The position numbers and the translations under genes are program-made. The notes below the pieces were generated by a model. That model was not told where the DNA came from, searched no databases, and saw only the letters and a list, made by a program, of their open reading frames with translations. 64,000 bases of DNA from a virus (taxonomy: Duplodnaviria > Heunggongvirae > Uroviricota > Caudoviricetes). Positions within the stretch are counted from its first letter, which is position 1; each line of letters starts with the position of its first letter. The stretch spans positions 19,905 through 83,904 of IMG/VR virus record IMGVR_UViG_3300006147_000008; one strand, given 5' to 3'. Below are positions 16,638 through 47,458 of the stretch, piece after piece.

Positions 16638-17414
16638 TCAGTCAAAATACTCACAGTCGGCTTGCACGTCGCATAGGTGCTTGCAGAACCAAAAGCTGAA
16701 ATTGGCGTACCAGTCGTCCGTCGCCGTGATTTTTTCAATAAGCCGCGCCGCCCACGCTTCAACCTCGACCATGCGTTCATACTGAAACGGTTCGCAAATC
16801 CATGTTCGTGTTCGGAAGCAGTTAAACTCCAGGAAGTCAGGGTATCGTCCATAAAGTTGACTGACGGCACTGGCATAGATGTAGAGCTGGCGAAGGTACT
16901 GATCCAGCTCACGATCAGATTGTGTGGGCTTTACTCGGTGAGAGCGGGGCTTCAAGGCTCTGGACTTGTGGTCAGTGATATACAGCTTGCCACTGTCGTC
17001 CTCACTAAGTACATCCAAAAAGCCAATAAAAGGGTGCCCCGCAAATTCAAACCTCATCTCATCCTCTACCTTGAGTATCTTCCGGGCAGGGAACGACAGT
17101 GTTTTGAGATACTGCCGTCCCTGCTCCAGATAGTCCAGATAGATTTTGCGGGATGGGGCTTTCTCCGTAATGTCGGAGATAAAGTGTGACACGTAGTAGG
17201 CAACGAGCGATTTTTGGGGCAGTACGCCGGTCAGATATTGCTGGAGGATGGAGTGCATGAGGCTCCCATATTGGGCAAAGAACTTGGATTGGGGGACGAT
17301 ACTGTACTCATCCCGCAAGATATACCGCATCAACCACATATATGGGCAGTCTTCAAAAGCAGTCAGCCGTGAATAGCTCCACTCCATCGGCTCAATCGAC
17401 AGGTCGTATCTCAT
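16638..17414 (-). CDS. PD-(D/E)XK nuclease (Cas4/RecB-like exonuclease) with C-terminal Cys cluster
   Basis: 258 aa; C-terminal CKHLCDVQADCEYFD 4Cys. Confidence 0.7.
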   Translation of the reverse strand: MRYDLSIEPMEWSYSRLTAFEDCPYMWLMRYILRDEYSIVPQSKFFAQYGSLMHSILQQYLTGVLPQKSLVAYYVSHFISDITEKAPSRKIYLDYLEQGRQYLKTLSFPARKILKVEDEMRFEFAGHPFIGFLDVLSEDDSGKLYITDHKSRALKPRSHRVKPTQSDRELDQYLRQLYIYASAVSQLYGRYPDFLEFNCFRTRTWICEPFQYERMVEVEAWAARLIEKITATDDWYANFSFWFCKHLCDVQADCEYFD

Positions 17415-17423
17415 TGCCCCTCC

Positions 17424-17858
17424 TTAGAACGGGAGATCGCCGTCTTCTTCTCCCCCGTCGTCATTCGCTGTGGGCGGGGGAGGTGCGCTCTTGCCGCTCT
17501 TCTTGTTGGCAGTTTTGGCAGACGCATCATCAGAGTTCCCGTCACCCTGACCCTTACTGTCGCAGAACTCCACACGGTCAGCCTTGATCTCCCAGGCGGT
17601 ACGGTTGTTACCCTCCTTGTCGGTGTACTTCCGGCTCTGCATCTCACCCTCAACCAGGATCTTGCGGCCCTTAGCGAAATACTTGGCAACGAACTCGGCG
17701 GTCTGCCGCCAGCACACGACGGTGAAGAAGTCCACCTCCTTCTCCTTGGAGTAGATACGATCTACGGCCACATTGAATGAGCACACTGGGGTATCGTTCT
17801 GCGTACGCTTCAGTTCAGGGTCGGCCACCAGCCGGCCAGTGATTTTGATACTGTTCAT
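17424..17858 (-). CDS. ssb: single-stranded DNA-binding protein
   Basis: OB-fold SSB sequence with acidic C-terminal tail ...EEDGDLPF. Confidence 0.8.
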   Translation of the reverse strand: MNSIKITGRLVADPELKRTQNDTPVCSFNVAVDRIYSKEKEVDFFTVVCWRQTAEFVAKYFAKGRKILVEGEMQSRKYTDKEGNNRTAWEIKADRVEFCDSKGQGDGNSDDASAKTANKKSGKSAPPPPTANDDGGEEDGDLPF

Positions 17859-18610
17859 TCTGCCTCTCCTTCCACGAATTGTTTCACTGCATTCAGCAGC
17901 TCGGTAGCGGTTTTCAGATTGTTGACCTTACGATAGTCGCCGGTGGGCTTGCCCTTGGCGTCCTTCACATACTTTTTGACCAGAACGGTCATCTTATCGC
18001 GGGCCTCCTTGGTGGCAGCTTCGGAATCAGTGAAACGCTCCAAATAGCCGGACACCAACTCCTGAACCTCCGCAATGGCGGCGGCGATCAGCTCGTTTTC
18101 TTCCCGCTCGGCGGTTTCCTGCTTCTTACTCCGCCAGTTGTCGGGATCGTCATCGGGCGTTGCGATCTGGAACATCTTCAGCAGGAAGTAACGGTTTAGA
18201 TAGCTCAAACCGCTACCCACCGCTTGGCTGGCGTCGGCCTGCTGGCCCACAATCAACCAGGGCACCTCAAGACGATCCTCCGGGTTATCCAGGTTCACCC
18301 ACGTGTACACCATGTCAGCCTTGACCAGTACCTCATTGACTGTCTCCTCCAGCCTCTTGCCATCCTTGGTATTCTTGGTCTTGGTGTAGCTGTACGGGGT
18401 GATCTCGGCAGTCTGGGGCACAATGCTGGGATACAGCAGAACGTGGTACTTGTCCATGCCGGCAGTCACACGCGCCAGGATCTCATCCTCAGACACGTAC
18501 TTGTAGTTGTAACCGGACTTGTTTTTGCGGATGACCTCGACCATGCTGCGGATACCCGCCAGCTTTTCCACGAGGGTCATCGTCTCAATGGGTTTCTTGC
18601 TCATTGACAT
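17855..18610 (-). CDS. ERF-family single-strand annealing protein
   Basis: 251 aa with ERF-like core (KYVSEDEIL...); sits between SSB and small genes. Confidence 0.65.
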   Translation of the reverse strand: MSMSKKPIETMTLVEKLAGIRSMVEVIRKNKSGYNYKYVSEDEILARVTAGMDKYHVLLYPSIVPQTAEITPYSYTKTKNTKDGKRLEETVNEVLVKADMVYTWVNLDNPEDRLEVPWLIVGQQADASQAVGSGLSYLNRYFLLKMFQIATPDDDPDNWRSKKQETAEREENELIAAAIAEVQELVSGYLERFTDSEAATKEARDKMTVLVKKYVKDAKGKPTGDYRKVNNLKTATELLNAVKQFVEGEAE

Positions 18611-18654
18611 TCAAAACTACCTCCAAGAGAGATTTTGTTGCACGTTATCGACAT

Positions 18655-18939
18655 CTATTCGCCGAAATTTTTGACCAAATAGCAGGACTCACAGAAATGC
18701 TCCCCGCTGGGCAAAATCTTGACGTATTCCCCGGTTATCGGCTTTCCGCAGCCATCACAGATAATGGTGTTTGCATACGCACCTCCGCAAAGAGGACAGC
18801 CGGTGAATGTTTCGTAAGGCGGTGTTTCAAGCCCGTGCCGCTCCGTATATTTCTGTGGGGTGTCAAAGGATGCCCCACATTCCAAGCAGGTATATCCAGG
18901 CGTCAATGTCAAACCACCTTCCAAATTGAGGTTTTCCAT
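18655..18939 (-). CDS. zinc-ribbon hypothetical protein
   Basis: CLECG...CPLCG...CDGCG three CxxC pairs. Confidence 0.4.
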   Translation of the reverse strand: MENLNLEGGLTLTPGYTCLECGASFDTPQKYTERHGLETPPYETFTGCPLCGGAYANTIICDGCGKPITGEYVKILPSGEHFCESCYLVKNFGE

Positions 18940-19199
18940 TTTGTGTTGGGGTTCTTACGCTTATCCACCACAGCAACCTCGCCCAATTTTTTCATCTCAG
19001 ATAGACGAGGCTTGATATAGCGACTGTCAGGTTTGGGGATCTCCCCACGCTTATAGAGCGCAGCAGCTATATCGTCGGCGGTCATGCCCCCAGGATCGCC
19101 GCAGGCCAGCACCTCAAGGATCATGGTCTTGCGGTTTTTCTTGCGGGGCTTTACCGGACGGCTTTTCAGTTCGATGCTCAATGTTATCACCCCTTTCAA
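18909..19199 (-). CDS. hypothetical basic protein
   Basis: 96-aa ORF, Lys/Arg-rich. Confidence 0.35.
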   Translation of the reverse strand: MKGVITLSIELKSRPVKPRKKNRKTMILEVLACGDPGGMTADDIAAALYKRGEIPKPDSRYIKPRLSEMKKLGEVAVVDKRKNPNTKWKTSIWKVV

Positions 19200-19335
19200 T
19201 CCGGCAAACTCCGGTTTCTATTGCCGTTATGGTCGGGCAAATCAAACCACCCTCCTGAACACGACCTCTGCGAGTTTTGCTGGAAGGGTAAGAGAGGTCT
19301 GCTACCCCCCCACAACACACTCAATGAAGCCCTGT

Positions 19336-20974
19336 TTAGTCGCTTGCTTTATCCAGACTGTTTTCATCCACCGTCAGCCTCCACTGTGTACCAGCCGGTC
19401 TTTGCTCCGCCCCCCCCGCTTCGGCTTTCAAAACACGCGCTACCGTATCACCATCATAGACGCGGTTGGCGTCGCCGTTATAGTTGTTGATGTAACCAAC
19501 CTGCCTCAGTTCGTCGCTCTTAGGAGGCTGGTCATCGTCACACTGGCGACATTGTGTGTCGAAGGTAGTGAGCGCTTTTTCAAACGCTCCGATACCGGAA
19601 AAGAAGGAACCAATCTCCATATCCTCAAAGAGATACGGCATGGCTTGGTACAGCTCTCCCATGATAGCGCAAAGCACATCCACCACAATGGAATTGCCCG
19701 CCTGCTTGTAGAGTTGAGAACCGCTGCGGTCGTTACCGCCGTACAGGTTCTGGTTCATCGCGGCCTGCGCCTTGTAGAAATCTTCGTCCTCAAAGCCCAT
19801 AAGCCGCCATGCTTCCAGTTGGGTCAGCTTCCGAACACGATAGCTCGGATTTTGAGTAGCACACGGTTTCTCCAAAACAAGTTGCCTCCTTTTCTTTGTA
19901 AGATATTGCTGAACTGTTGTGCCCTTATAGTAATTCGCATCAATACAATACGATATGGGTGGGGTAGCCAATGGAGATAGGTCTTCGTTGACTTCAATCA
20001 CTCTTTTGTCCCCCCCCCCGTCAATGGTGCGAATGGTGCCGCATACATTATCCTTGAAGAAACGGACACCTTCGTCACATCGCCGCTCACATACGATTTT
20101 CATGTCGTTCCACAACTCCTGTCATCTGTTGATTTCCGAACCCTTTATAGTCACGGGCCAACAAGGTTAGCGCCGTATCACAGTACCCATCAAATTGGGT
20201 GCCCTTCTTACTCAGCTTTGCGCTGGCAAGTGAGCAAGTCCCAGCAGTGACGGTCTGTTGAACCTCTTCCGCTTGTGCGGATGGTGTTACTGATCTGTCG
20301 TAGCGGGGGGGGGTGATCATAGCCGCTACCTTGTCGTCAGACAGATAGTAGCGCTCGTCTACATGGTCATCCAACATATCCACCAACACCCTTTTCAGCG
20401 GGATGGGTGCGGGAAATTGGAACTTCCCGTTGTCCAAGTCCTTACGGATGATGACGCAATACACACGCTCCCGATTTTACGGAATACCATAGTTCTTGGC
20501 ATTCAACACTTTCCAGTAAACGTTGTAGCCATAGTCCTCCAGCTCTTTGACAAAGAGGTCAAAAGTGGTGCGGAAACGAGATCCGGTGATGTTCTTGACA
20601 TTCTCATAGATGGCGAAACGGGGCTTCTTCTCTCTCAGGAAACGAAGCCACTCAACCAAGAGCGAAGAGCGGGTCTTCTCAATCTCTGTGTGCCCACATT
20701 TGGGGCAGTGGTCGCGCTGTGTAAAGTGGGCTTCCAGGGGGTTGTAGGTGTGGCCGCAGTGTTTACAAGTCCACGCAGCCCCTCCCTGCTTACCACTGAT
20801 ACTGAAATCCTGACACGGGGAGCCGCCGAACATCACGTTGAAGTCGGGGACGCTCTTCTCGTCGGCCTTGGTGATATCGCCGATGTTGAGCGCTGGGTTA
20901 GTCCCATGCACAGCACAGTAACTTTCTGCGGCGTACTTATCAAACTCGCAGAAAAGGGCAGTTTTGTAATTCAA
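19336..20974 (-). pseudogene. DNA (cytosine-5) methyltransferase, disrupted (in-frame TAA at conserved Gln plus frameshift)
   Basis: Three ORF fragments. Motifs II-IV (PCQ) and VI (ENV) in 20477..20974. Expected QNRER (motif VIII) reads TAA-NRER at about 20477. Frames shift again at about 20087-20115. Motifs IX/X (GNS) in 19336..20115 are followed by a motif-I-like FSGIGAF. Confidence 0.6.
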
Positions 20975-21050
20975 AAGAGGTTCCTCCTATCAAATAGTAT
21001 AGCACATACTGCTGCTCAAGTCAAGAGATTTTGTTGCACTGTATGACCAG

Positions 21051-21588
21051 TCAGACCTTTTTTATTTCCTCAAAGACAATTTGCTTGGGCAGCATTCCCA
21101 TACAAACATAGACACTGCTAAACGGCGGGTTCAAAGAGGGCTTCTGTTCCTCATAGCTCTTGAAGTAAGCGATACGCTTGTTGAGATACATAATCTCAAA
21201 GTCGTGGTCACGGAACATGGCAAATCGCTTTTGGCTCTCGAATAGCCCCACCACACCAACCAGCATGGCAAACGGAATGCCCAGCTCGAACAACCGCTCA
21301 AACACTTGCCCTTTAAGGGAGTAAGGCGGATTGCTAATGATGTAATCGCACTTGGGCAGTTCCATCGCAAAGAAATCTTGTCCATTTACGATATGGGTGG
21401 CAATGACCGTGTAGCCACGCTGCCGGAAGAGCTTTACGAACAGACTGTCCTCAGTGTCGAATGGGCACCAAATCGTTGCGGGGGGGGGGTACAAGGTACT
21501 TATACAACGGAATAATGGCGTACTCTGGTGTGTAGAACTCGTCGTTGCCACTACCGGCAACCTTATCCATTTTCATGTCGATCACTCC
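21051..21588 (-). CDS. phage Dam-like N6-adenine DNA methyltransferase, frameshifted at a G10 homopolymer
   Basis: RBS + MKMDKVAGSGNDEFYTPEYAIIPLYKYLVPPP reads into the G10 tract, then stops. With 9 G it is in frame with 21051..21560 (NPPY at ISNPPYS). Confidence 0.65.
21480..21489. repeat. G10 homopolymeric tract inside MTase gene (candidate slipped-strand phase-variation site)
   Basis: Run of 10 G on plus strand encodes PPP; causes +1 frame break. Confidence 0.8.
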
Positions 21589-22881
21589 TTATCCATAGCT
21601 AATATCGTTTTTGTCCATCCTCAGTGTGACGAAAATGGGGAACTGCAGGCTTTCAGCGCCGGTCTTCTTATCGTAGGAAATCTCCTTGTACTTGACCTCA
21701 CACAAAACGCCCAGCAAATCCTCTTTATGCTTCCAGAGCTGTGCCCGCTGCTCATCAGTGAAGCCAGACCCTACACTAACGGTAGACCCCTTAAAAGATA
21801 CGACCAGCGCACCCAAAGTACCAGCTAACCTACCTGTGCCCTCCTCAAAGTTGATGATGGGCAAGTCCATAGTATAAAACCGCTTAACCTTCAAAATGCC
21901 ACGGTGCCGCTTGCGCTGGTAGGGCACATCAAGGTTGACCATCAGCCCTTCTTTATCCTCAGCCACCATCTGATCCAGTAGCTCGTCGATCTTAGCTTGG
22001 TCAGTACCCATATAGAGTGTCGGTAACACACGGATATGGCAATCGCTCGGCAATAGCCCACCAACTGCGTCCAACGCCGTCCGACGTGCTTTGTAAGTCA
22101 TGACACACTTGTCAGACTCGAACTCTGGTGTGTTGATCACGTCGAAAATAGTGTAGCAAATTGCAGTTTTATCCACGTCATCAGAGTTGATAATGCCAGT
22201 AGCCTTGCGGAATGCCTCATTGTCACTCAGGTCGCCCTTGTCTATCAGTGTCAGCTCTCCGTCGAACACCAGGCCAGAAAACGTTTTGTTGCTGGACAGA
22301 ATATCCGTGATGTGGTCAAGTCCCTCATAAGGGACGCCACTACGGGCATAGAGCTTACCTTTGTAGAAAGTGGCCCGAACACCATTGAGCTTCTGAGTAA
22401 GGGCGAACCACGTCCCCTCTTTGAGCGGGTACTTGTCAATGGGATATGCTTGCTGGACTTCCCACTCTGGGATCAGACCCAGAATGACTTTATTCACGGT
22501 CTTGGCAGTAACACCCAGGCGAAGTGTCTTTGCCAGCAGCTTCGTGTAAAACTCCTTTACACCAGTTGGGCACACTTGAAGGAATGCGCACACCTGATAG
22601 ACTGTAACATCGTCCAAGGCTTTCTTGGCTGATAAGGTATCGCAAATTGTGTAGATGTCGCACAGCGTTAGAGTGATAGCCGGATCATATTTAACTGGAC
22701 GGCTCATCGTCTGTTCCGAAATCTTGTAAGTAAGCATGGGGTTAAGTGCATAGTAAAGGAGCTTGCGAAAATGCTCATTATCCTTGTACCGCCGCAACAT
22801 CTCCTGCTTTTTCAATGTGCTGGACTCCTGCTGGAGCGTACACAACGCTGTGATAGCGTCAAACATGACAGTATTCATCAT
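21589..22881 (-). CDS. ATP-dependent DNA ligase
   Basis: KLNG adenylation motif (motif I KxDG-type), 430 aa, ligase/OB architecture. Confidence 0.8.
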   Translation of the reverse strand: MMNTVMFDAITALCTLQQESSTLKKQEMLRRYKDNEHFRKLLYYALNPMLTYKISEQTMSRPVKYDPAITLTLCDIYTICDTLSAKKALDDVTVYQVCAFLQVCPTGVKEFYTKLLAKTLRLGVTAKTVNKVILGLIPEWEVQQAYPIDKYPLKEGTWFALTQKLNGVRATFYKGKLYARSGVPYEGLDHITDILSSNKTFSGLVFDGELTLIDKGDLSDNEAFRKATGIINSDDVDKTAICYTIFDVINTPEFESDKCVMTYKARRTALDAVGGLLPSDCHIRVLPTLYMGTDQAKIDELLDQMVAEDKEGLMVNLDVPYQRKRHRGILKVKRFYTMDLPIINFEEGTGRLAGTLGALVVSFKGSTVSVGSGFTDEQRAQLWKHKEDLLGVLCEVKYKEISYDKKTGAESLQFPIFVTLRMDKNDISYG

Positions 22882-23617
22882 AAGGGTTGAAGGATGGCAT
22901 GGGACTCAACTTGTGGAGATTATGAGCGTGAAGGGTAGCAATTTTGGTATCGGTAGCCTCGTTGCCAGAGGTGCCGGTAAGGATATACCTATCGAGGTCG
23001 TCATAGGAAAAACCCAGATTATCCTCATCGGTTTTCCCACAAAGACCATCAGAGGGCACCTTGTTTACCAGCTCGGCAGGCAGACCCAATGCGTGACCAA
23101 GCTGAATGACCTCATGTACCATCAAATTGGCAAGAGGACTGAAATCGCCAGCACTATCACCAAATTTGGTGGAGTACCCCACAAAATCCTCAGAGCGGTT
23201 GCAGGTGTTGGCGACACGCCCACCATTGGGAAGGGACTGGGCGATAGCGTAGAGTGTGGTCATGCGGATGCGGGCAGGCAGGTTCGTCTTCGTTTGCTCA
23301 CTGACTTCCATCTTGATGCGAACCCTAAACAAAATGGAATCAACAGGGCTTTGGATATTTACCTGATACGACCGGATGCCAAGATGCTCCACGATTCGCT
23401 TACTGTCCTCGATATCAGCCTGCTCTCCACACGGCATAAGGACACCAACAACTCTTTCCTTTCCCAGGGCTTCAACACAGAGGGCGGCGACGACACTCGA
23501 ATCTTTGCCGCCAGAAATGCCGACCACAGCGTCACATTTGGGGCCGTTCATATTGAAGTAGTCACGAACCCACTGGACAATCTCATCCTTGGCCTGTTTA
23601 GGATCAGACAGCATCAA
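22859..23617 (-). CDS. nadE: NH3-dependent NAD+ synthetase
   Basis: GISGGKDSSV PP-loop motif, 252 aa. Confidence 0.85.
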   Translation of the reverse strand: MMLSDPKQAKDEIVQWVRDYFNMNGPKCDAVVGISGGKDSSVVAALCVEALGKERVVGVLMPCGEQADIEDSKRIVEHLGIRSYQVNIQSPVDSILFRVRIKMEVSEQTKTNLPARIRMTTLYAIAQSLPNGGRVANTCNRSEDFVGYSTKFGDSAGDFSPLANLMVHEVIQLGHALGLPAELVNKVPSDGLCGKTDEDNLGFSYDDLDRYILTGTSGNEATDTKIATLHAHNLHKLSPMPSFNPYDEYCHV

Positions 23618-25149
23618 AACTCACCTCCATGAAGATTTTTGCGTACCTCGTCCAAGGTGAAAACCTTGAGCATCTGGCCGTTTTTGAACACAACTCTCAG
23701 CTCGTTATCTTCCTGCGCCTGTTCCCAGGTAAGGCCGTCCATGTAACAATAGTTGCCGCTGGGAAGGCTCCTGGTGACACGGCAACACCCACGCTGGGAC
23801 TTTTTGAAATTGCCGCTGTCGGTCTTGGGGTTTTTGTAAATCATGATAGGATTGCCGTTATAATCCTCAGCATAGGTAGCCTTGACAGCAATACCGAAGG
23901 TATCACGGGTATAGGGTGCATAAGCCTTGCTGTCGCCGTCTGTTGTCTCCAGACACTGCATGGAGAAGGAACCGACACCCAAAGAGACGTTGTTGATAGC
24001 AAACCCACGCTCCATAAGAATCTGGTAGATCGCCTTGCAGCGCTGCGGAGTAATGCTGTCGCCATAGAGTGCCTTAACGTGCGGGTCAAGAACCTTGTAG
24101 CCCTTGCTGTTCACGGTGCCGCCGAAGATATCCCACAACTTGAATACGGTCTTGGTTACAACCTCTACGGGGTCGCCGCTATCTCCACGAATAGCAAGGC
24201 ACCCATCATGTGCCAGAACGTCGTCCTTGATCTGAGGGAGAATGTTGTCTACCAGGTTCCAGTAGTCATAGCTGTCACTGACCATAGAGAAGTTCTGGTG
24301 CGGGTAAACCTCTTTCAACAGACGCTTGATGTGTGTTACCTCATCACCGTCCACAGCGTAGTTGGAACACATGACACTATGCTCAGTGGACAGAGCACCA
24401 TAAGCCACAGGTTCATTCTCAACACGGCAGGCATAATTCTTTTCCAGCCAGAGGATGGCCGGCACAGTGGCCGTATTCAAAAAGCTCAGGCAGAATGCAG
24501 CAGAACTCTTGGTGGCGCTCTCAACACTTTCCTGACCACGCATAGAAAAGTCGCCCAGGAGCTTTGCCCGCACCACGCTGTCGTCGCAGGTGATATCAGC
24601 AAACTCGTTGACAATCTGCCGATAACGGTATCCCACCTCAGCTGAGATCTGAGTGTGCCACATGGAGCAGGACAGCATAGTTTCAATGCTGTTGACCAAC
24701 CAGACAAAGTGGGGGTTGGTATTCGAGATTTCGATTTGCGGGACATGGATGTCGGTGCGAGTACCCTCCGGCACAGCACGAATCATAAGGGGCAGGTAGC
24801 CCAACTCGTGAAGCGCTTTCACACGACCATAGCCAACACCAACTGTGCCAATGGTACAGCCCAGAATCCGAACGTACTCTTTCATAACCTCGCCGAGAGG
24901 ACGGTTGAAAAAGTAGGTGTTGAACGCCTCAATCAGGTATTCCTGAATAAACGCCTGCAAACCAAACATCGTGATCTTATTCACGTCAGGCAGGCGGGTC
25001 ATACGGGGCGTGTAGTAGGATACCATTTTGGTCAGCGTTTCAGGATACTGCTCCGCGTGCGCTGTCTTATAGAAGTCCAGGCACAGCAAAGGATTGTATG
25101 AAATCATTGTTTGATACCCTCTTTCAGTCAATGATGGAGATTTTTTCAT
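23614..25149 (-). CDS. nicotinamide phosphoribosyltransferase family (Nampt/NadV, or NARP1 Namat-like)
   Basis: 511 aa with Nampt-family sequence; overlaps upstream prs-like gene by 26 nt. Confidence 0.8.
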   Translation of the reverse strand: MKKSPSLTERGYQTMISYNPLLCLDFYKTAHAEQYPETLTKMVSYYTPRMTRLPDVNKITMFGLQAFIQEYLIEAFNTYFFNRPLGEVMKEYVRILGCTIGTVGVGYGRVKALHELGYLPLMIRAVPEGTRTDIHVPQIEISNTNPHFVWLVNSIETMLSCSMWHTQISAEVGYRYRQIVNEFADITCDDSVVRAKLLGDFSMRGQESVESATKSSAAFCLSFLNTATVPAILWLEKNYACRVENEPVAYGALSTEHSVMCSNYAVDGDEVTHIKRLLKEVYPHQNFSMVSDSYDYWNLVDNILPQIKDDVLAHDGCLAIRGDSGDPVEVVTKTVFKLWDIFGGTVNSKGYKVLDPHVKALYGDSITPQRCKAIYQILMERGFAINNVSLGVGSFSMQCLETTDGDSKAYAPYTRDTFGIAVKATYAEDYNGNPIMIYKNPKTDSGNFKKSQRGCCRVTRSLPSGNYCYMDGLTWEQAQEDNELRVVFKNGQMLKVFTLDEVRKNLHGGEF

Positions 25150-25942
25150 GGGAAGCGCGAAGGATACTACTGGTAGTGAACACGCGGGAGATCATGCCGT
25201 CTGTCAGCACATCACCTTGCAAAATGGTGTTTTCACAATGGCTGACATAAAGGAAGATTTCTTTTGCCCCAGCCTCTTTCAAAGCCTTAGCGGTATGGGT
25301 GAACGTACCGCCACGAGAGCAAATATCATCTACGATCAAAACGTTCTGCCCAACAACCTTCCATGAGTCAGTCAGCTCCAAACGCTCAATTTTGCCGGTA
25401 CGCCAATCGCGGTGCTTGATACAGAACACATAGTCCATCTGGAACATAGCAGAGTACCGCTTGGCTGCACCCTCGTCGGGGTAGCACAGCAAAACATTCA
25501 TGTTGCGCTTGCCGTTCAGTTCGTCGATCACCGACTCAATACAGTCATGGGCTGCAATAGTCTCGACATGGTTAATCAAAGCCTCAGAGACATTAGAATG
25601 GGGATCAAATACTTGGACATAGGAGAAATGCAGGCTGTTGATAAACTCCGCAAACCATTTGAGGGTGAAAACCTCATCGCAGTTTTTCACACGATCCATA
25701 CGCGCATTGGGCACATATGGCATATACAGCCCGATTGGAGTATTCTCCCCATTGTTGGCCCGGATATGATGAACAAGGTTCCAAAGCAACATACACTCGT
25801 GGTCGCCATCATACTTCCAGTCAATCTTGTAAGCGTCGTCTCTTGCGTAAAGCCGCAAAGAGCAGGTTTTGTCTGGGAAGGATGTAGGGGAGAGCTTTTC
25901 ACCATTTACCGTAAACATCTCAGCCCTCCCAGTTCTCCACAT
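25124..25942 (-). CDS. ribose-phosphate pyrophosphokinase family (Prs, or NARP1 Adps-like)
   Basis: PRPP-binding loop VLIVDDICSRGGTFTHTAKAL; 272 aa. Confidence 0.75.
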   Translation of the reverse strand: MWRTGRAEMFTVNGEKLSPTSFPDKTCSLRLYARDDAYKIDWKYDGDHECMLLWNLVHHIRANNGENTPIGLYMPYVPNARMDRVKNCDEVFTLKWFAEFINSLHFSYVQVFDPHSNVSEALINHVETIAAHDCIESVIDELNGKRNMNVLLCYPDEGAAKRYSAMFQMDYVFCIKHRDWRTGKIERLELTDSWKVVGQNVLIVDDICSRGGTFTHTAKALKEAGAKEIFLYVSHCENTILQGDVLTDGMISRVFTTSSILRASHEKISIID

Positions 25943-29560: not shown

Positions 29561-29974
29561 TTATTCCAGATAGGGAAGCTCCTGTCGAATGTCATTTGGA
29601 ACGTTGCCACTCCAAACATAGGAGTTTTCCAGGATGAAATTGTTGTAAGTAGCAGCTGTTTTGTTCGCTCTCATTTTTGCCTGCTCTGCCCAGCCCTGCT
29701 TCTCCTCATTGTCACTGGCCTTATACTGCTCATAGGTGAGTCGGTCAGCTTCATAGGAAGCGACCATAGAGCGGCAGGTGTCCTCCACCTCTTTCTTAGT
29801 ATGGTAGTTGGTGGCGTCGTCAGCTTTCTGAACTGCGCCCCAATACGTGTTCCAGCTGGCGCGTCCCATAGGTGTGCAGCCGGAAAGGAAGCCTGCAACA
29901 ATAATAATCAGTGCCAGAGCAATGACTGCGAGTGACACAATTTGGATGGCACCATAGCGTTGTCTGTGTTTCAT
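29561..29974 (-). CDS. lipoprotein (hypothetical)
   Basis: Signal peptide with lipobox FLSGC. Confidence 0.5.
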   Translation of the reverse strand: MKHRQRYGAIQIVSLAVIALALIIIVAGFLSGCTPMGRASWNTYWGAVQKADDATNYHTKKEVEDTCRSMVASYEADRLTYEQYKASDNEEKQGWAEQAKMRANKTAATYNNFILENSYVWSGNVPNDIRQELPYLE

Positions 29975-30552
29975 TGGTTATCCTCCTGGATCAGCACTGT
30001 CGGCGTGCCCAGCTCGAAGGGGATGTCAGAATAGAGGTAGATACCCGTCCACTCAATATACTTACCATCTGGTGTGAAGAAAAAGATACCGTTGTCATTT
30101 TCGCCGTATGATCCGTCTACATCAGCCAGCTCAGTAGTAATGGTGTAATACCCGGCAGATGAATTTCCACCGCCTCTTGTCTCAACGTAGTCGGGGCTGA
30201 GAAAACTGTTGAGGCTGGATACTTTTCCATCTACAACGAACCGGCCCACAACGCCGCCCGCCTCCGTAAACAAAACGATGTAGCCCAAGGGCTTTTCTAC
30301 GGCACACGTAAGGGTGTTCGCCCGTTCCCGCTGCCCGTTGACCCAGTAAGCACGGCGTATCAGGTTGTACCGTTCCAGAGAGTAGTCGATATCAGTGGGT
30401 GTTTGTTGGGAATGTGTTAGCTTATCCGTAACGTTTTTGGTGTCGTCAATGTTCTGCTGGGTGCCAGAAGCAGTGTACGCACTCGGATCACCGCAGGCGC
30501 ACAGCGAAAGTGTCATCAGAGCGGCAAGGATAATTGCAATAATCTTCTTCAT
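29971..30552 (-). CDS. lipoprotein (hypothetical)
   Basis: MKKIIAIILAALMTLSLCAC lipobox; 193 aa. Confidence 0.5.
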   Translation of the reverse strand: MKKIIAIILAALMTLSLCACGDPSAYTASGTQQNIDDTKNVTDKLTHSQQTPTDIDYSLERYNLIRRAYWVNGQRERANTLTCAVEKPLGYIVLFTEAGGVVGRFVVDGKVSSLNSFLSPDYVETRGGGNSSAGYYTITTELADVDGSYGENDNGIFFFTPDGKYIEWTGIYLYSDIPFELGTPTVLIQEDNQ

Positions 30553-30670
30553 AAAATGTTCCTCCTTTAGTCACATGAGACGCCAATGTATTCCAGAACA
30601 CGGCGCATACCCAGCCCATGTTCTTCCCACGGCCTCATGCAGTAATCCCAAAGTTTGGGGTGGGTAATTT

Positions 30671-31504
30671 TCAGACGTTGGAAACGGTTTGGAGCCTTTT
30701 CCAAATGAGCGCCAAAGGCACAAAAGACACAGCCTGTACGATGCTCTCCTGTTGTTGTCCACCCCCCCCGTTAGTTCTGACGATATCGCCATAGACAGAT
30801 GCGTAAGGAATCTGATAGGTATACAGGTACTCAAGTACATCGCTTTCAGTCCAGAAGGACATGGGCTGAGAACTGGGATTTTTCCCGGAGAAAGCGTTAC
30901 AGCCCTGGTGTAGCCACGTACTGCGACGTAATCTGCTTTCTTCCGCCATGGTTGCGATGATGGGGTGCCGACCTGTCTCCTTTTTATACTTCTTCATGGG
31001 CCGCTTTTTCATGATATTGCAGCATCGAGCAGAAACCTTAAAGGGGGCGTCCAGCAGATAGCACCACTTTTCACAGTTGAACTCTGAAGGAGTACCATTG
31101 CTCCGCATAATCTCTCCGTGAAGCTCTTTCCACCGAAAAGAGCCAGGCTTGTGCCCATATTCCACAGTGTCGGCCACTCGTTTAGAAACAACTGGGTAGC
31201 CATACCGCTCAATGATTTTGCGGAAATTCATCTCTGGACGAACAACAGTGACATTTTCACAGCTTCTGGCAAACTGCCTAACCTCTGGGAACTCCAGCCC
31301 TGTGTCTGAAAACACTGCCGGCACATCAGGGTAGATGCGCCGTACAATGTCAAGGAGCACCGTAGAATCCTTGCCCCCAGAAAAAGCCACGTAAACTTGG
31401 CCGTCGTAGTGCTGATACCACTCAATGATCCGAGCGGTCGTAATTTGGATTTTGCGTTGAAGTGGAAGCCTCTGTAGCTCTTCCAGCTGTTCCCTACTAT
31501 GCAA
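30671..31504 (-). CDS. PP-loop ATP pyrophosphatase (PAPS reductase / TtcA-like)
   Basis: VAFSGGKDSTVLLD PP-loop; Cys cluster CEKWC...CC; TTG start with RBS; contains in-frame C8 tract at about 30756. Confidence 0.6.
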   Translation of the reverse strand: MHSREQLEELQRLPLQRKIQITTARIIEWYQHYDGQVYVAFSGGKDSTVLLDIVRRIYPDVPAVFSDTGLEFPEVRQFARSCENVTVVRPEMNFRKIIERYGYPVVSKRVADTVEYGHKPGSFRWKELHGEIMRSNGTPSEFNCEKWCYLLDAPFKVSARCCNIMKKRPMKKYKKETGRHPIIATMAEESRLRRSTWLHQGCNAFSGKNPSSQPMSFWTESDVLEYLYTYQIPYASVYGDIVRTNGGGGQQQESIVQAVSFVPLALIWKRLQTVSNV

Positions 31505-38784: not shown

Positions 38785-38907
38785 TACGGCGGGTAGGATT
38801 TGAACCTACGAATGGCAGCTTGGCTTCCTTTTTACATTGCTGTTAGTGAAACTGGGGTGTTCCACATTTTATAGGGCTGCTGTGTTAAACCACTTCACCA
38901 CCGCCGT
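38785..38907 (-). ncRNA. tRNA-like RNA A (about 123 nt): canonical arms plus about 56-nt insert between anticodon-stem strands
   Basis: 7-bp acceptor ACGGCGG/CCGCCGT, D-arm GGTG..CACA, T-arm GTAGG-TTCAAAT-CCTAC; GCAGC...GCTGC encloses an insert with hairpin GTGGAAC-N6-GTTTCAC and ACAGCAA box. Confidence 0.55.
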
Positions 38908-38912
38908 GTAGG

Positions 38913-39030
38913 TGCCAGGGGTTGGATTTGAACCAACGACCTTCGGCTCCTGGCCGACGCTCTATCCAGATAAACTTGCTGTTCACGCCTCTTAAAAGAC
39001 GCACGTTTTTTTTGACTGAGCTACCCTGAC
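38913..39030 (-). ncRNA. tRNA-like RNA B (about 118 nt): about 44-nt insert in D-loop
   Basis: Acceptor GTCAGGG/CCCTGGC, TAGCTCAGTC...TGGATAGAGC D-arm split by insert (hairpin CGTCTT-TTAA-GAGGCG + ACAGCAA), T-arm GTTGG-TTCAAAT-CCAAC; anticodon loop non-canonical. Confidence 0.55.
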
Positions 39031-39036
39031 ATATGT

Positions 39037-39156
39037 TGCGGCAGGCAGGACTCGAACCTACAGTGTAGCGGTTCCCATTAGCATACCTTGCTGTCAGTGA
39101 AACCAGACGTTTCACATTTTGCATTACCGCCGTGTCTACCATTCCACCACTGCCGC
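39037..39156 (-). ncRNA. tRNA-like RNA C (about 120 nt): about 53-nt insert in anticodon region
   Basis: Acceptor GCGGCAG/CTGCCGC, D-arm GGTGGAATGGTAGACAC, stem GCGGT/ACCGC around insert (GTGAAAC-GTCTG-GTTTCAC hairpin + ACAGCAA), T-arm GTAGG-TTCGAGT-CCTGC. Confidence 0.55.
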
Positions 39157-39280
39157 ATAAATGCTCGTCTTTCCAAGCTGCCATCGGTTCTCCACTTTTC
39201 GTTGTCTGAACCGAAAACTTGGCCCACGCTGGTTCAAATTCTATCTGGAGAGAATGGAACCAGAAACTAAATACTCCTTG

Positions 39281-39397
39281 TGCCAGGGGTGGGACTCGAA
39301 CCCACGACCACGGGATTAAAAAGTCCTTTTGAAAATTGCTGTGCGCGTTTCCTTGAATACGCATTGATACGTGCTCTATCCGCTGAGCTACCCTGGC
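39281..39397 (-). ncRNA. tRNA-like RNA D (about 117 nt): insert after a canonical D-arm
   Basis: Acceptor GCCAGGG/CCCTGGC, D-arm GCTC-AGCGGATA-GAGC, T-arm GTGGG-TTCGAGT-CCCAC; insert with hairpin TGCGT..ACGCG + CACAGCAA. Confidence 0.55.
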
Positions 39398-40176: not shown

Positions 40177-40267
40177 TGGCGAAGGGAGCGGGACTCGAAC
40201 CCACACGTCCTTGCGGGCTACTGCTGGTTTAGCAAACCAGTGCCTTACCAGTTAGGCTTATCCCTCC
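40177..40267 (-). tRNA. tRNA-Ser (anticodon GCU), type II with long variable arm, encoded CCA
   Basis: Acceptor GGAGGGA/TCCCTTC, anticodon stem CTGGT/ACCAG with loop TTGCTAA, 19-nt variable arm, T-arm GTGGG-TTCGAGT-CCCGC, 3' GCCA; promoter-like ACAGCAAT box 68 nt upstream (about 40335-40346). Confidence 0.7.
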
Positions 40268-41602: not shown

Positions 41603-41691
41603 GTTCTCCCCCCCTATGCTAATTTTGAGAGATTTTGTTGCTTGCTATTGAGTTCTTAAAACGGCGTAAGCCGTTTTAAGAGTTATAGCCT

Positions 41692-42748: not shown

Positions 42749-43225
42749 TTACTCTTCCAGCCGACGATGCAGCCAGTTCTTTTGCTGAGGGGTCAGACGG
42801 TCAACCATCTTGCCCAGCCACTTGAAATCTGTCGCAAGCAACCGCCAGTTGAAATAGTTGGCTTCCTCAAAACCCAGCTGCCGGCTGTCCAGGCCAGTGT
42901 CTTGGGCAAAGAACTTGTCCAGCAGACCCATGATCTGCTCATTGGTGGCCTCCAAGGGGCGGCGCATCTGCTTCCCACCGTTCAGATCAGCGACCAGCGC
43001 ACACTTCACTCCCTGAACGGGCTGGGCGGTTATCTGGATGTACGCGCTGGACACCGAGGACATCTGCTTGGGAAGCGGGCCGCGATAAGGAAGCATGATG
43101 TTCTCCTTTTTTGCGCTGTGAAGCTCCACCGCGCTGGTGTCCAGCTCAAAGCCTCCGAAATCTTCTACCGGATTGTTCCGCAGTTGCATTTTCCTACCTC
43201 CGTTCATTTTTTGGTTGACGTTCAT
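42749..43225 (-). CDS. hypothetical protein
   Basis: 158-aa ORF; divergent to HTH gene. Confidence 0.4.
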   Translation of the reverse strand: MNVNQKMNGGRKMQLRNNPVEDFGGFELDTSAVELHSAKKENIMLPYRGPLPKQMSSVSSAYIQITAQPVQGVKCALVADLNGGKQMRRPLEATNEQIMGLLDKFFAQDTGLDSRQLGFEEANYFNWRLLATDFKWLGKMVDRLTPQQKNWLHRRLEE

Positions 43226-43365
43226 TGAAATATGTGATATAATTTTCTCGAAACACGAAAGTTATCGTGTCTGTTGCCTACTATACCATCAAACTTTCGT
43301 GCTGTCAAGTGGTTTTCACGAAAATCTGCGTGACTTTTTCAAAATTTCTACTGGGAGGTCATGTT

Positions 43366-43731
43366 ATGGAGTCCATCATCTTTACAAGGATCAAGGAACT
43401 GTGTGTTGAAAACGACATCACAGTCAATAAACTTGAGTCCGAGTTGGGTATGAGCCAATATTCCATTGGGAGATGGAAAAACGCCACATCACCCACTATT
43501 GACAAGGTTTCCAAGATCGCTAAATATTTCAATGTCTCCATAGACTACTTGGTAGGCGCTACAGACATCCGCACACCCATGGATACCATGATGAAGGATC
43601 AGGACTTCATCTCTATCCAGCGGGCGCGGGAGCAAATGAGCGACAGAGATCGGCAGCGCATGATGATTATGCTAAAGGCCGGCTTTGACTTTGCTTTTTC
43701 CGACGACAAGTCCCGTTTATCGGACACTTGA
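43366..43731 (+). CDS. XRE-family HTH transcriptional regulator (CI/ImmR-like repressor)
   Basis: HTH_3 ...ITVNKLESELGMSQYSIGRWKNA...; RBS GGGAGG before MESIIF. Confidence 0.8.
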   Translation: MESIIFTRIKELCVENDITVNKLESELGMSQYSIGRWKNATSPTIDKVSKIAKYFNVSIDYLVGATDIRTPMDTMMKDQDFISIQRAREQMSDRDRQRMMIMLKAGFDFAFSDDKSRLSDT

Positions 43732-43773
43732 TATGATATACTTGTTTCCCAACGGTTCCGAAAGGAGGCAGAA

Positions 43774-44373
43774 ATGGTCAGGACTGTCTATGTCCAACGT
43801 AAAGTGCTGGAGATATACCAACGGATGGATACTATCATCTATCCCATCCAACCCTTAACGGTAATTCCATGCCTTACCCAGCATTGTCGAGCGCTTACCT
43901 ATCAGGATATGGCAAAGCTCAACCAATGCAACATCAAAGATGTAGCTGTCATGTGTAAAAGCAATTCCGGTGCAACCCACTACGATACTGAACAGAACCG
44001 TTACCTCATCCTTTACAACGACGCTATGAACCAAGGAAGGGTTCGATGGACAATCAGCCATGAAATCGGCCACATCTGCATTGGGCACCTGGAAATGATT
44101 GAGGAAGCAGAGATTGCTTGCTCCGAATGGCGGGAACCATACAATCAGTTCGAGGGTGAAGCTGACTATTTTGCTTGGAACCTCATCGCTCCACTCCCTA
44201 TCATGCGTGAAATGGGCATCCGTACTGCAAATCAGATACAAACCGTGTACGGCCTGTCATCCCAAGCCGCCGCTCTCCACTATGACAGATACCTCAAGTG
44301 GTGCCGCAGCCATATCAAAACCGCTTGGGAAAACAATATGCTCCGAGAGTTCCGCTGTAAATTCCAGAAGTGA
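43774..44373 (+). CDS. ImmA/IrrE-family zinc metallopeptidase
   Basis: HEIGHICIGH zinc-binding motif; directly downstream of XRE regulator. Confidence 0.8.
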   Translation: MVRTVYVQRKVLEIYQRMDTIIYPIQPLTVIPCLTQHCRALTYQDMAKLNQCNIKDVAVMCKSNSGATHYDTEQNRYLILYNDAMNQGRVRWTISHEIGHICIGHLEMIEEAEIACSEWREPYNQFEGEADYFAWNLIAPLPIMREMGIRTANQIQTVYGLSSQAAALHYDRYLKWCRSHIKTAWENNMLREFRCKFQK

Positions 44374-44413: not shown

Positions 44414-47400
44414 TTACTCAATCACCTGTTTGCCCCAGGAAAGATAGGACAATCCCTTGTCATCCACCTTGCGAGACATCAGCAGACTCATAAGGTCATA
44501 GTCCACGCCGAAGCGGTTATACACCTCATCCAAGTCCACATCCTGCCCCTTCATAAACAGGTTCAACTTCTCCTTTGCAAGAACCATCTGCATTTGGTTA
44601 GACTCAATGCTTCCAGAGTAGGTAACAAAGTAGATGTCCTTCCAGTCTGTAGAGGTGAAGCGGACAAACCTCATATAGAACTGGCTCATCCGGGCATTAT
44701 TATAGTGCAGCTCTGGGATAACCACCTTGTTTACAAACTCGAAGTTGACCGAAGATGGGAGGCATTGCTGAGTACAGACCATAATGCCATTGCCGCTTTC
44801 CTTCAGAGACTTTTTCAGCTTCCGCCGTCCGGCCAAGGTCGTGGTGCTGCCAGTGACGGTAAACAGCTTACGCTTAGGGAAACGCTGCCGAATTGCCTCA
44901 GTGTATGCCTCCACAACGTTTTTATGGCGGACACCGATTACCACGACCTCATCATTCCACTCTGCCACCATATCGCAGACCTTCCTGATCTTGACTGGCA
45001 AATCCGCACTGTCGTATTCCTCCACAGTGTTGGGGGCGGCAGAAATACGCAGGAGCAGGGTGATTTGCTGGATCAGAGCCATCATGCTATCCTTTCGGCT
45101 GTTTCCGGTGAGGGCAAAATACCGCTGACGCAACGCAAAAAACTCCTCAACCGCTTTCCGATACACCTCGCGTTCCACGGAGGAGAACGACACAGGAACC
45201 TGGTGGATGCGACGGATCTCCTTGCCCGTGATTTCCGCGAACGTTCTGGTAATGACAGCGTAAGACAACATCCTGTTCAGCGCGTCCGCATTGTAGATAT
45301 CCTGGGTCTTTTTACCAACACCAAACACGGTGATCTTCTCCGGCAAATGAGACTCAGCAAACAAACGGTATCCAGGCTTGTAGGCGGGGATGGGCTTGCC
45401 ATAGAAGGGGTTGTTAGTGCTGCCCAGCCAGCTACCGTCCTCGTCTTTTTCATACTGATACAAGCACTCCGCCCAAGAAATCATATTGTAAGAGTTGTTA
45501 TAAAGCAGTTCCAGCTGTGGCGCACTCTCCGAGATGTTGTTCCGAGTGACGGTGCCAGTCATTTCCAGCTTAAACCGAACCTTTCTGAAGCAATCCAGTA
45601 CAGCCTTGGTGCGTTTGCTATCTGGGTTGGTCATCTCATCGCTCTCGTCAAATACCAAATCCACGTTCCGCTGCCGCATCTTGATGTGGCGCTTGATCTG
45701 CTTGCGGTACTTGGAGAGCATATTCAGGGTGATGATGACAAACTCACCATCCCTTACCCCATCCAGGTCGGAGAGGGTGCGGATCATCCGATAGTTGGTC
45801 ATACCATAGTTTTTGAACACCAGATCCCAGTTATTTTTGATGGAGATAGCTGTGGACACAACCCAGACGTTCCGAGCACCCTGCCGCTCCATACGATACC
45901 TACCCGTAGCGATACCTGCCAGCGTCTTGCCGCCGCCCTGCTCCCACTGTAGGAGATGGTAACGCTTCTGTAAGATCAGGTTGAGGTTATGCTTCTGAGT
46001 GTCGTTAAGGTGTATCCACTCCTCATTCTCATTATCATAGACGGTAAACTCGTCCAAGAACCGAGCAATCTTAGCGTCCAGCTCCATCTCTTCAAAGGGT
46101 TTTGTCTCTCGGTCATAGTCACGCTGCTTGCGGCGAATGAGACGGGCATACTGCTCTAAACCCGTGCCGTCCATCTGCCCCGAAACGAGAGCGTAAAACG
46201 GGACAAACTGCTTCATTTCCAACGTCATGGACTGCCGTACCTTTTTACTATACCCTTTGTAAATCAGTCCGCCGTCCTGCTTGACCAACCGGATCACATC
46301 GCGGCTGGGCTTCTTGTGCTGGGACTTGACCACACGCCGAAGATAGGCCAGCACCTTAGCTTCTGTAATGCGGATTTTTGCCCACTCCTCGTATTTCATA
46401 TCGGCGGGCTGAACCTGGTGCTGGAACTTATACAGATACTCCTGGCACTTGGCGTACTTGTCGGCCAGCTTGGGGTTTTTCTTAATGTGAAACAACATCT
46501 TCTGCACTTGGTAGTCAAACTCACTGCAATTATCACTGCGTCCAAGCAGCTCGGCACGAGCGCGATTTTGTTGCTTCAGCATTTTGGCAGGAGCCACGAT
46601 TTTCTCCTTGGTGTAACGCAGTAGATCGGCGGTGTCATCCAGGCTGAACATTTGAGCGTCGCAATCCAAACGGTAAACGCCGGAGACTTCCTCACCGTCC
46701 ATTCGTTTCTGCCAGAACATCACCTTTGTAAGATAGTTGGTTACACCCAGATATCTGAACGCGCCGCCCATAATCTCAATCTGTCCCATAAAGGAAAAGT
46801 GCTTTTCCATCTCTGCAATTTTTTGTTTATCCATATAATCATCAGAGAGGAATTGTGCTGGCACCACGATAGCCATGATACCCAGGGGCTTGAGAAGCTG
46901 CGCTGCCTTGAGACAGTAGTACATCTGAGAAATATACTCTGTATCATCCACCTGCCATTTCAGATTGAAGGGCGGATTGCCCACCACAAAATCGAAGTGC
47001 ATATCCGGCTCATAGAAACGAATGTCCTTATGCTCCAAATTGGCGGCAGGGTAGAGATAGTGAGCAACCTTATGGGATTTGATATCCAGCTCACAGCCAT
47101 AGAAGTTGGCCTCCACCGGCATGAAGTTGGCAAAGTGCGCCATCCCGGAGGTAAGGTCGGCTACGGTGTCGGTCATCCCTACATCCAGTGCCTCCATGAT
47201 GAACTGGCACAGGGCAGGCGGAGTGAAGAACTGCCCGTTCTCGATCTCCTTCTTAGCCTCGCCGTACTCGTGGTAGTTGGCAAAATCCGACCGTTTCAGG
47301 CCGTGCAGTCCGCCGTCGCCGGTGTAAGCGTTGAAGATATCCTCACGGGTGATGCCCTCCTGCTCCGCTATATCCTGATCGACGATATAGAGGATCTTGT

Positions 47401-47458
47401 CGTTCAGCTCACGACGGGCCTCCTGGGGGATAATCTCATTGTGAAATGTGTATTTCAT
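44414..47458 (-). CDS. DarB-like N6-adenine DNA methyltransferase fused to SNF2/DEAD-type helicase (1014 aa)
   Basis: N-term MTase motif VVGNPPFNLKW; central/C-term helicase motifs (GGGKT-like Walker A region, DESDEMTNP DExx box). Confidence 0.8.
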   Translation of the reverse strand: MKYTFHNEIIPQEARRELNDKILYIVDQDIAEQEGITREDIFNAYTGDGGLHGLKRSDFANYHEYGEAKKEIENGQFFTPPALCQFIMEALDVGMTDTVADLTSGMAHFANFMPVEANFYGCELDIKSHKVAHYLYPAANLEHKDIRFYEPDMHFDFVVGNPPFNLKWQVDDTEYISQMYYCLKAAQLLKPLGIMAIVVPAQFLSDDYMDKQKIAEMEKHFSFMGQIEIMGGAFRYLGVTNYLTKVMFWQKRMDGEEVSGVYRLDCDAQMFSLDDTADLLRYTKEKIVAPAKMLKQQNRARAELLGRSDNCSEFDYQVQKMLFHIKKNPKLADKYAKCQEYLYKFQHQVQPADMKYEEWAKIRITEAKVLAYLRRVVKSQHKKPSRDVIRLVKQDGGLIYKGYSKKVRQSMTLEMKQFVPFYALVSGQMDGTGLEQYARLIRRKQRDYDRETKPFEEMELDAKIARFLDEFTVYDNENEEWIHLNDTQKHNLNLILQKRYHLLQWEQGGGKTLAGIATGRYRMERQGARNVWVVSTAISIKNNWDLVFKNYGMTNYRMIRTLSDLDGVRDGEFVIITLNMLSKYRKQIKRHIKMRQRNVDLVFDESDEMTNPDSKRTKAVLDCFRKVRFKLEMTGTVTRNNISESAPQLELLYNNSYNMISWAECLYQYEKDEDGSWLGSTNNPFYGKPIPAYKPGYRLFAESHLPEKITVFGVGKKTQDIYNADALNRMLSYAVITRTFAEITGKEIRRIHQVPVSFSSVEREVYRKAVEEFFALRQRYFALTGNSRKDSMMALIQQITLLLRISAAPNTVEEYDSADLPVKIRKVCDMVAEWNDEVVVIGVRHKNVVEAYTEAIRQRFPKRKLFTVTGSTTTLAGRRKLKKSLKESGNGIMVCTQQCLPSSVNFEFVNKVVIPELHYNNARMSQFYMRFVRFTSTDWKDIYFVTYSGSIESNQMQMVLAKEKLNLFMKGQDVDLDEVYNRFGVDYDLMSLLMSRKVDDKGLSYLSWGKQVIE

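Follow-up and report, generated by a model that had tools for sequence, protein, structure and literature searches.

Homopolymers inside the open reading frames (ORFs) of phages can act as contingency loci, in which reversible frameshifts give rise to mixed progeny. Hypermutable polyG tracts are reported from the receptor-binding genes of Campylobacter Fletchervirus (Sorensen et al. 2021), and the A-run of the agt glucosyltransferase gene of phage T2 has been identified by experiment as a homopolymer contingency locus that hedges between restriction systems with opposite requirements (bioRxiv 10.1101/2025.10.21.683753); a Bordetella phage whose methylase gene has polyG tracts, never studied, is also mentioned in that preprint. 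In the phasevarions of Haemophilus, Neisseria, Helicobacter, and Moraxella, slipped-strand mispairing of a simple-sequence repeat in the methyltransferase ORF of a Type III mod or Type I hsd locus toggles methylation ON and OFF; these loci are chromosomal restriction-modification components, and their switching rewires host gene expression. The orphan methyltransferases of phages, such as T4 Dam and the multispecific C5 enzymes of Bacillus phages SPR and phi3T, have no cognate nuclease, are encoded among early or replication genes, are presumed to protect phage DNA, and are not known to be under homopolymer control. Here, we describe a locus in a window of 64,000 nucleotides (the whole stretch of DNA analysed, positions 19,905 to 83,904 of the Caudoviricetes record IMGVR_UViG_3300006147_000008), in which a run of ten C's on the coding strand, tract T5, divides a small DNA methyltransferase gene. 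That the gene is real and that the homopolymer alone splits it, as a preliminary description of this DNA had stated, is borne out by our analysis, and we think it likely that T5 is a slipped-strand-mispairing contingency locus in a phage orphan adenine DNA methyltransferase of predicted activity.

The elements of the split gene are as follows; the tract and the ribosome-binding site (RBS) were read from the sequence, and the methyltransferase assignment draws on a PHROG match, homologues, and a structural model.

21480-21489, minus strand: tract T5, G10 on the plus strand and C10 on the coding strand
21585-21590, minus strand: AAGGAG ribosome-binding site, 6 nt upstream of the ATG at 21576
21451-21576, minus strand: OFF-state ORF of 41 codons
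21051-21576, minus strand: NPPY adenine-type DNA methyltransferase gene, 174 aa at C9

The OFF-state ORF, whose AAGGAG site shares nucleotides with the DNA ligase stop codon, starts at ATG 21576, reads MKMDKVAGSGNDEFYTPEYAIIPLYKYLVPPP, crosses T5, and terminates at a TGA at 21451-21453. Its 41-aa product (P0135, MKMDK...VPPPRNDLVPIRH), which is also recorded from other contigs, stops nine codons past T5 and is without any catalytic motif. An overlapping downstream ORF contains NPPY and has its stop codon at 21051-21053. T5 encodes Pro codons 30-32 of the methyltransferase, and the C10 run spans codons 30-33. When the length of T5 was replaced, C9 and C12 fused the two ORFs and C8, C10, and C11 did not; the window allele, C10, is +1 out of frame, and C9 is in frame. 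T5 is therefore a mononucleotide run of at least eight G/C inside an ORF in which a change of +/-1 alters the reading frame. An RBS-preceded ORF that enters the tract as Pro-Pro-Pro and ends soon after lies where the preliminary description had placed it. Removal of one G joins the ORFs as proposed there, but the fused protein is 174 aa and not 204 aa, a figure reached by summing 169 and 35 residues although the two ORFs overlap.

Both in-frame (ON) and out-of-frame (OFF) alleles of the gene occur in nature. We collected 80 viral contigs by peptide patterns from elsewhere in the methyltransferase gene, and in the close clade among them a poly-C run is present at exactly the T5 site. Among the 61 fetched loci with a tract, 18 are C9 and in frame, 28 are C8, 12 are C10, and two are C7, and the remaining locus is C8 and in frame within its own context; 42 of the 61 are out of frame. 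C10 is repeated in at least ten independent assemblies besides the window, and C7 in two. The exact in-frame (C9) protein, P0121, was found on 17 other contigs, and downstream-ORF fragments of OFF alleles are also recorded from other contigs. One contig, L119 (JGI 3300006204), does not differ from the window and probably derives from the same source. An exact-flank DNA pattern search of the viral contig collection, from which the window's own lineage is absent, returned nothing, and neither did a megablast of 5.2 kb against annotated phage genomes. The run is lacking in distant homologues only, which encode, for example, K-P-N-S at the T5 site; Enterocloster phage CB473P3, the nearest relative among cultured phages (64% aa identity), is likewise without a tract. 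A lack of any homopolymer in homologues, named in the preliminary description as refuting phase variation, is thus not seen in the close clade. A distant homologue, L079, has a G8 run (Gly codons) where the clade has poly-C (at approximately locus position 4090), which may be a homopolymer of independent origin in the same loop. Distant members of the small methyltransferase family are also present in 37 records of Campylobacter phages, a group with known polyG contingency tracts, and in Streptococcus phage CHPC929 the match is broken into three pieces, possibly a sign of frameshifts there too.

Short insertions and deletions (indels) at the locus are confined to G/C tracts. We aligned 22 independent near-identical contigs (0.1-2.3% substitutions) to positions 19100-21650 of the window (2.55 kb), and all short indels in them map to five tracts: T5 (21480), T4 (20305), T3 (20010), T2 (19410), and T1 (19305). 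In these contigs, T5 is 7, 9, or 10 nt long, and the lengths range from 8 to 11 for T4, 7 to 12 for T3, 8 to 10 for T2, and 7 to 9 for T1. At T5, the human-gut clade and the isolate genomes show 8 and 9 nt. The C7, C9, and C10 alleles of T5 sit on genes that are 99-100% identical, and contig L111 differs from the window by three substitutions and four tract lengths. Thus, ON and OFF lengths are found on near-identical genomes, and the length-variable switch suggested in the preliminary description is seen as in-frame and out-of-frame lengths on otherwise identical genes from independent samples. A/T runs of 6-8 nt, by comparison, differ in 4 of 107 comparisons versus 54 of 87 for G/C runs of at least 7 nt; the control regions were fetched via the Band_7 gene, the 158-aa ORF at 42749-43225 having given no record. 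By our own tally, 9 of the 15 contig ends within 17000-21650 fall within 45 nt of T2 or T3, where approximately 11% would be expected. These breaks hint at mixed lengths within samples, which would interrupt a de Bruijn assembly in this way, although low coverage or read errors could produce them likewise. T4 is ON in 8 of 10 contigs in which T5 is ON and in 2 of 11 in which T5 is OFF, a difference to which we give little weight because several samples come from one study. The sole indel outside the tracts is a stretch of approximately 138 nt that is lacking or replaced in L083 and L087 relative to window positions 19844-19994, in the variable region of the C-terminal part of the adjacent C5 methyltransferase; this change could be a swap of a target-recognition segment.

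The gene is under purifying selection, and its homopolymer is preserved. All 42 of 42 OFF alleles keep an intact downstream ORF of 139-142 codons, and OFF-versus-OFF comparison gives a ratio of nonsynonymous to synonymous substitution rates (dN/dS) of 0.04 at dS 0.35. At 16 fourfold-degenerate codons whose amino acid is the same across 24 unique variants, four of them for Pro, the third base is scrambled (mean majority fraction 0.50, conserved at none of the 16), whereas none of the 24 has an interrupted C run at the tract. Two tract lengths were found with each of four identical 300-nt downstream segments. Because of these signals, we conclude that the run is kept by selection, that the gene is not decaying, and that the length changes faster than substitutions accumulate. 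The gene is kept functional despite being frequently OFF, with the repeat uninterrupted, and a reading of the locus as a pseudogene was rejected given the dN/dS and the intact downstream ORFs.

T5 is also more than a chance feature of the sequence. Runs of C of length 3, 4, 5, and 6 number 583, 104, 16, and 1 in the window and runs of G number 480, 142, 18, and 0, and after this near-disappearance at length 6 there are nine G/C runs of length 7-10. Four G/C runs of at least 9 nt were observed compared with 0.5 expected under a first-order Markov model (maximum of three in 200 simulations), a null that overestimates long runs and is hence generous to chance; for runs of at least 7 nt, the same null gives 6.9 expected compared with nine observed. 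More is learned from the test on runs of at least 9 nt and from the empirical decay of run lengths than from the test on runs of at least 7 nt. Five of the nine long G/C runs are inside methyltransferase genes between 19305 and 21489 (2.2 kb, 3.4% of the window). CCC accounts for 40% of Pro codons and GGG for 15% of Gly codons, and the three other PPP motifs among 32 genes each use mixed codons.

The fused protein matches PHROG 799 (DNA methyltransferase) at 4.5e-29 and has 4352 homologues that are typically 172-175 aa long; therefore, the C9 fusion restores the normal length of the family. Neither NPPY (residues 82-85) nor a WCPFD segment varies among 38 homologues. The AlphaFold (AF2) model is a single Rossmann domain (predicted local distance difference test score 84.5, predicted template modelling score 0.83), in which the Pro-Pro-Pro stretch forms a loop between the N-terminal helix at 18-27 and the strand at 34-37 (beta1), and in-frame length changes should therefore be tolerated there. 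Its best fold match in the PDB is M.TaqI (Foldseek E 1.7e-4, template modelling score 0.61 normalised to the query), followed by the adenine-N6 rRNA methyltransferases KsgA/Dim1/ErmC and Type I M subunits. Like M.TaqI and Type I HsdM, the phage protein has an S-adenosylmethionine (AdoMet)-binding region followed by NPPY, whereas it shares approximately 15% identity with them, has no target-recognition domain, and has a divergent motif I with WCPFD instead of FxGxG. No separate target-recognition domain is visible in the 174 aa. A profile search against PDB sequences gave only noise, and the fused window protein has no match in Pfam (E at most 0.1) or NCBIfam; precomputed matches to PF13651 or PF05869 exist on a few homologues, PF05869 on 1 of 120 among the matches listed. 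With an AdoMet-type Rossmann fold and the (D/N)PP(Y/F) motif IV, the protein has the marks of an amino-methyltransferase, and judging from the model it is most like a minimal NPPY amino-methyltransferase, closest to the gamma-class N6-adenine enzymes. The label Dam-like given to it in the preliminary description does not hold as family membership (PF02086 or PF05869), given the lack of a Pfam or NCBIfam match and a fold search led by M.TaqI- and HsdM-like structures in which T4 Dam ranks only 42nd (E 0.03, template modelling score 0.34).

Further tracts lie in the adjacent C5 methyltransferase and elsewhere in the window.

20087-20974, minus strand: N-terminal part of a C5-cytosine methyltransferase, 295 aa when intact, with motifs II-VIII and a zinc ribbon (PF00145, 3.9e-48)
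20305-20313, minus strand: tract T4, C9 on the coding strand, within the N-terminal part; nine is in frame
19336-20103, minus strand: C-terminal part of the C5-cytosine methyltransferase, approximately 246 aa, with motifs IX-X (dcm profile positions 273-328)
20010-20019, minus strand: tract T3, G10 on the coding strand, in the C-terminal part; in frame in the window
19410-19417, minus strand: tract T2, G8 on the coding strand, in the C-terminal part, whose C-terminal tail it alters
19114-19367, minus strand: ORF of 84 codons resembling a C5 target-recognition segment (..SKTRRGRV..)
19305-19311, minus strand: tract T1, G7 on the coding strand, splitting the 84-codon ORF; G8 is in frame
30567-31504, minus strand: PAPS-reductase-like gene split by a tract; the repaired protein matches PF01507 (1.5e-18)
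41608-41614, minus strand: G7 tract on the coding strand, overlapping the RBS of a membrane-protein ORF (60 codons) that lies upstream of the Band_7 gene
57327-57335, minus strand: C9 tract, 36-44 nt before the DUF932 start (ATG 57291) in the 5' untranslated region

The methyltransferase gene lies between the DNA ligase gene and the C5-cytosine methyltransferase, beyond which are genes for ERF, SSB, a PD-(D/E)XK nuclease, a primase-helicase, and Pol III alpha. T4 and T3 gate the ORFs of the N-terminal and C-terminal parts of the C5 enzyme. The N-terminal part covers positions 21-244 of 329 of the TIGR00675 (dcm) profile, and the C-terminal part has a perfect motif-I-like FSGIGAFEKAL after motif X; the 84-codon ORF has no Pfam or NCBIfam match. 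Even in relatives in which all tracts are in frame, the C5 methyltransferase consists of two overlapping ORFs (295 and 246 aa), the first without motif I. Such an arrangement may point to an enzyme that is split and circularly permuted, with additional pieces resembling target-recognition segments downstream of it. A TAA at 20477-20479 (minus strand) stands in place of the CAA (Gln) of QNRER that relatives have, and the N-terminal part is inactivated by it in the window and in the identical L119 although T4 is in frame; we considered stop-codon recoding here and rejected it, as TAA for CAA is a plain nonsense change. In the PAPS-reductase-like gene, a G8 run on the coding strand at 30762-30769 is the splitting tract, and G9 would join the conserved C-terminal ..TTGEHRTGCVFCAFG..; the near relatives L081 and L084 have an unrelated 275-aa gene in this position. 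The tract at 41608 is 7, 8, or 9 nt long among seven relatives, and the one upstream of DUF932 is C10 in L131 and C9 in L132; both of these tracts occupy regulatory positions.

Several other features of the window accompany this region. Genes related to NAD adjoin the methyltransferases at 22859-25942 and 29971-30552 (minus strand) and comprise NAMPT/NAPRTase-like, phosphoribosyltransferase (Prs-like), NAD synthase, and isochorismatase-family members, with Pfam assignments taken from the genes of relatives; the set resembles the NAD+ reconstitution pathways with which phages counter NAD-depleting defence. A second adenine-methyltransferase-like gene without a tract, at 44414-47458 (minus strand), encodes a 1014-aa protein in which an N-terminal N6_Mtase/Eco57I-like domain (NPPF) is fused to a ResIII/SNF2-type helicase, and an Xre/ImmA-type pair is found at 43267-44373. 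Four tandem matches to the Rfam tRNA model at 38785-39397 (minus strand), 117-123 nt each, have an insertion of approximately 50 nt in the anticodon loop/stem; ARAGORN calls none of them, reporting only a tRNA-Ser(GCT) at 40177-40267, and they may be phage tRNAs with introns or of some other unusual type.

The near-identical contigs are largely from mouse-gut runs, and the relatives are phages and prophages of the mouse and human gut. Relatives of the locus are also present in isolate assemblies of Oscillospiraceae, which therefore are the host clade. The loci in these assemblies have six to eight long G/C tracts per 8.5 kb together with the same methyltransferase cassette. The two states of T5 are already held in cultured isolates, namely the ON state (C9) in Dysosmobacter segnis (BX15), where the locus is in a 388-kb contig, and the OFF state (C8) in Hominicoprocola fusiformis (CLA-AA-H269). 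The phage itself is probably temperate.

In the mechanism that we propose, polymerase slippage during replication of the phage or prophage would shift the run length by +/-1. At C9, or any length in register, the 174-aa enzyme would be made; at C7, C8, or C10, translation would end soon past the tract, before the catalytic motifs. The same device would operate in the adjacent C5 methyltransferase ORFs, through four tracts, and in the PAPS-reductase-like gene, so that one phage population could give progeny with different combinations of DNA modifications. The benefit would be one of hedging between hosts that cut unmethylated DNA by restriction-modification and hosts that turn methylation-dependent (Type IV) nucleases on methylated DNA, and an ON allele could also methylate the chromosome of a lysogen. 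High-rate, reversible switching within a population, the activity and target of the enzyme, and the selective benefit are parts of this mechanism that we infer. The multi-switch DNA-modification cassette probably does hedge against host restriction, and an orphan gene that lies in a replication module among tract-bearing DNA-modification genes fits bet-hedging better than the phasevarion-like regulation that had been suggested.

Several points weigh against a slipped-strand switch at T5. Of 18 loci from the human-gut lineage, 16 have C8 at T5 alongside neighbouring tracts that vary, which may reflect a slower switch, a preference for the OFF state, or alternative or leaky decoding by ribosomal or transcriptional slippage. 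Tract lengths are known from assembled contigs alone, Illumina indel errors are commoner in long G/C runs, and some contigs have approximately 6x coverage. The contigs of the window lineage were fetched by exact protein, which biases the T5 length counts and leaves the other four tracts unaffected. Finally, the family of this predicted enzyme has no match to a curated Pfam or NCBIfam model.

Three other explanations of T5 were weighed against the switch. Under recoding, ribosome or RNA polymerase slippage on the C run would express the out-of-frame alleles and the tract would set a low, constant level of expression; for this, ribosomes or polymerase would have to shift by -1 on C CCC CCG of the C8 alleles and by +1 on CCC-C of the window's C10 allele. 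CCC-C is prone to +1 shifts and Pro-Pro-Pro stalls ribosomes, the C8 alleles do have a heptamer of the X XXY YYZ type (C CCC CCG) with a stop within zero to two codons, and the downstream ORF is under purifying selection even where a lineage is C8 nearly throughout. All-G/C slippery sites are, however, poor for -1 frameshifting, and G/C runs are poor for transcriptional slippage. A programmed shift also predicts one conserved out-of-frame length, whereas lengths 7, 8, 9, and 10 at one site would need opposite shifts, and C9 alleles, which are in frame, are common. Recoding agrees with the selection data and can coexist with switching at the DNA level, but it does not by itself explain four lengths, and we regard it as unlikely to be the explanation of the tract.

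We consider it quite improbable that T5 is a neutral hotspot, that is, a fragile site in a dispensable accessory gene whose OFF alleles represent gene loss in progress. Approximately two-thirds of the assembled alleles are out of frame, near the 2/3 expected from neutral drift of length, the neighbouring C5 methyltransferase has the plain nonsense mutation in the window, and L069 and L070 have a short, out-of-frame run of five C's; yet every OFF allele retains the full downstream ORF at a dN/dS of 0.04, the homopolymer is pure while synonymous sites are randomised, where neutrality predicts quick interruption, and the tracts cluster in DNA-modification genes, five of nine within 3.4% of the window. 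That the gene is in frame everywhere and G10 is a sequencing or assembly artefact, an alternative raised in the preliminary description, appears very improbable to us. Indel error rates climb in long homopolymers, several contigs have low coverage, and contigs often break at the tracts; however, with C10 in at least ten independent assemblies, C8 at 28 loci, C9 at 18, and C7 at two, systematic errors in opposite directions would be needed, well-covered isolate genomes show both C8 and C9, A8 and T8 runs are stable in the same contigs, and the evolutionary signals are independent of read errors.

Beyond the switch at T5, we tentatively suggest, as a possibility that we would not put at even odds, that a widespread clade of temperate phages of gut Oscillospiraceae carries a combinatorial epigenetic bet-hedging cassette, in which at least three DNA-modification activities, namely those of an N6A-type methyltransferase, of a C5 methyltransferase that is split and has additional target-recognition pieces, and of a PAPS-reductase-like enzyme, are independently toggled by selectively maintained poly-G/C tracts, leaving progeny pre-adapted to opposing forms of restriction. 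Phage methyltransferases are usually viewed as fixed anti-restriction equipment. If the suggestion is true, each burst would release many modification patterns, switches in a lysogen could reprogram the methylome of the host, and gut phages would diversify their own epigenome stochastically, which bears on host range and on coexistence with hosts that have methylation-dependent nucleases as well as restriction-modification. In this widespread clade of gut phages, several conserved switches are gathered in the DNA-modification genes, and in metagenome annotation such tract-split genes are routinely called fragments or pseudogenes.

Our literature searches turned up no account of methyltransferase cassettes under tract control in gut phages; work on CJIE1, like the other papers checked, proved not relevant. 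The locus resembles the phage contingency loci in having a homopolymer in a phage ORF, with frameshifts that here are presumably reversible, and it resembles T2 agt in that the gene is one of DNA modification. In contrast to Fletchervirus and T2 agt, it comprises orphan N6A-type and C5 methyltransferases with several tracts in a 2.2-kb cassette, its hosts are gut Oscillospiraceae (Firmicutes), its tracts are conserved across a wide clade of mouse and human phages, and it is known from sequence alone. With the phasevarions it shares a repeat in a methyltransferase ORF, whereas here the ORF, which lies in the replication module of a phage, encodes an orphan catalytic domain of 174 aa and is not part of a Type I or III restriction-modification locus; no res or hsd genes are near it, its neighbours being the ligase, the C5 methyltransferase ORFs, ERF, SSB, and NAD-salvage genes. 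As with T4 Dam and the enzymes of SPR and phi3T, there is no cognate nuclease and the gene lies among replication genes, but the protein is much smaller than these enzymes and is not detectably of the Dam family. Phage contingency loci and phase-variable methyltransferases are already known as kinds, and the present locus belongs among them.

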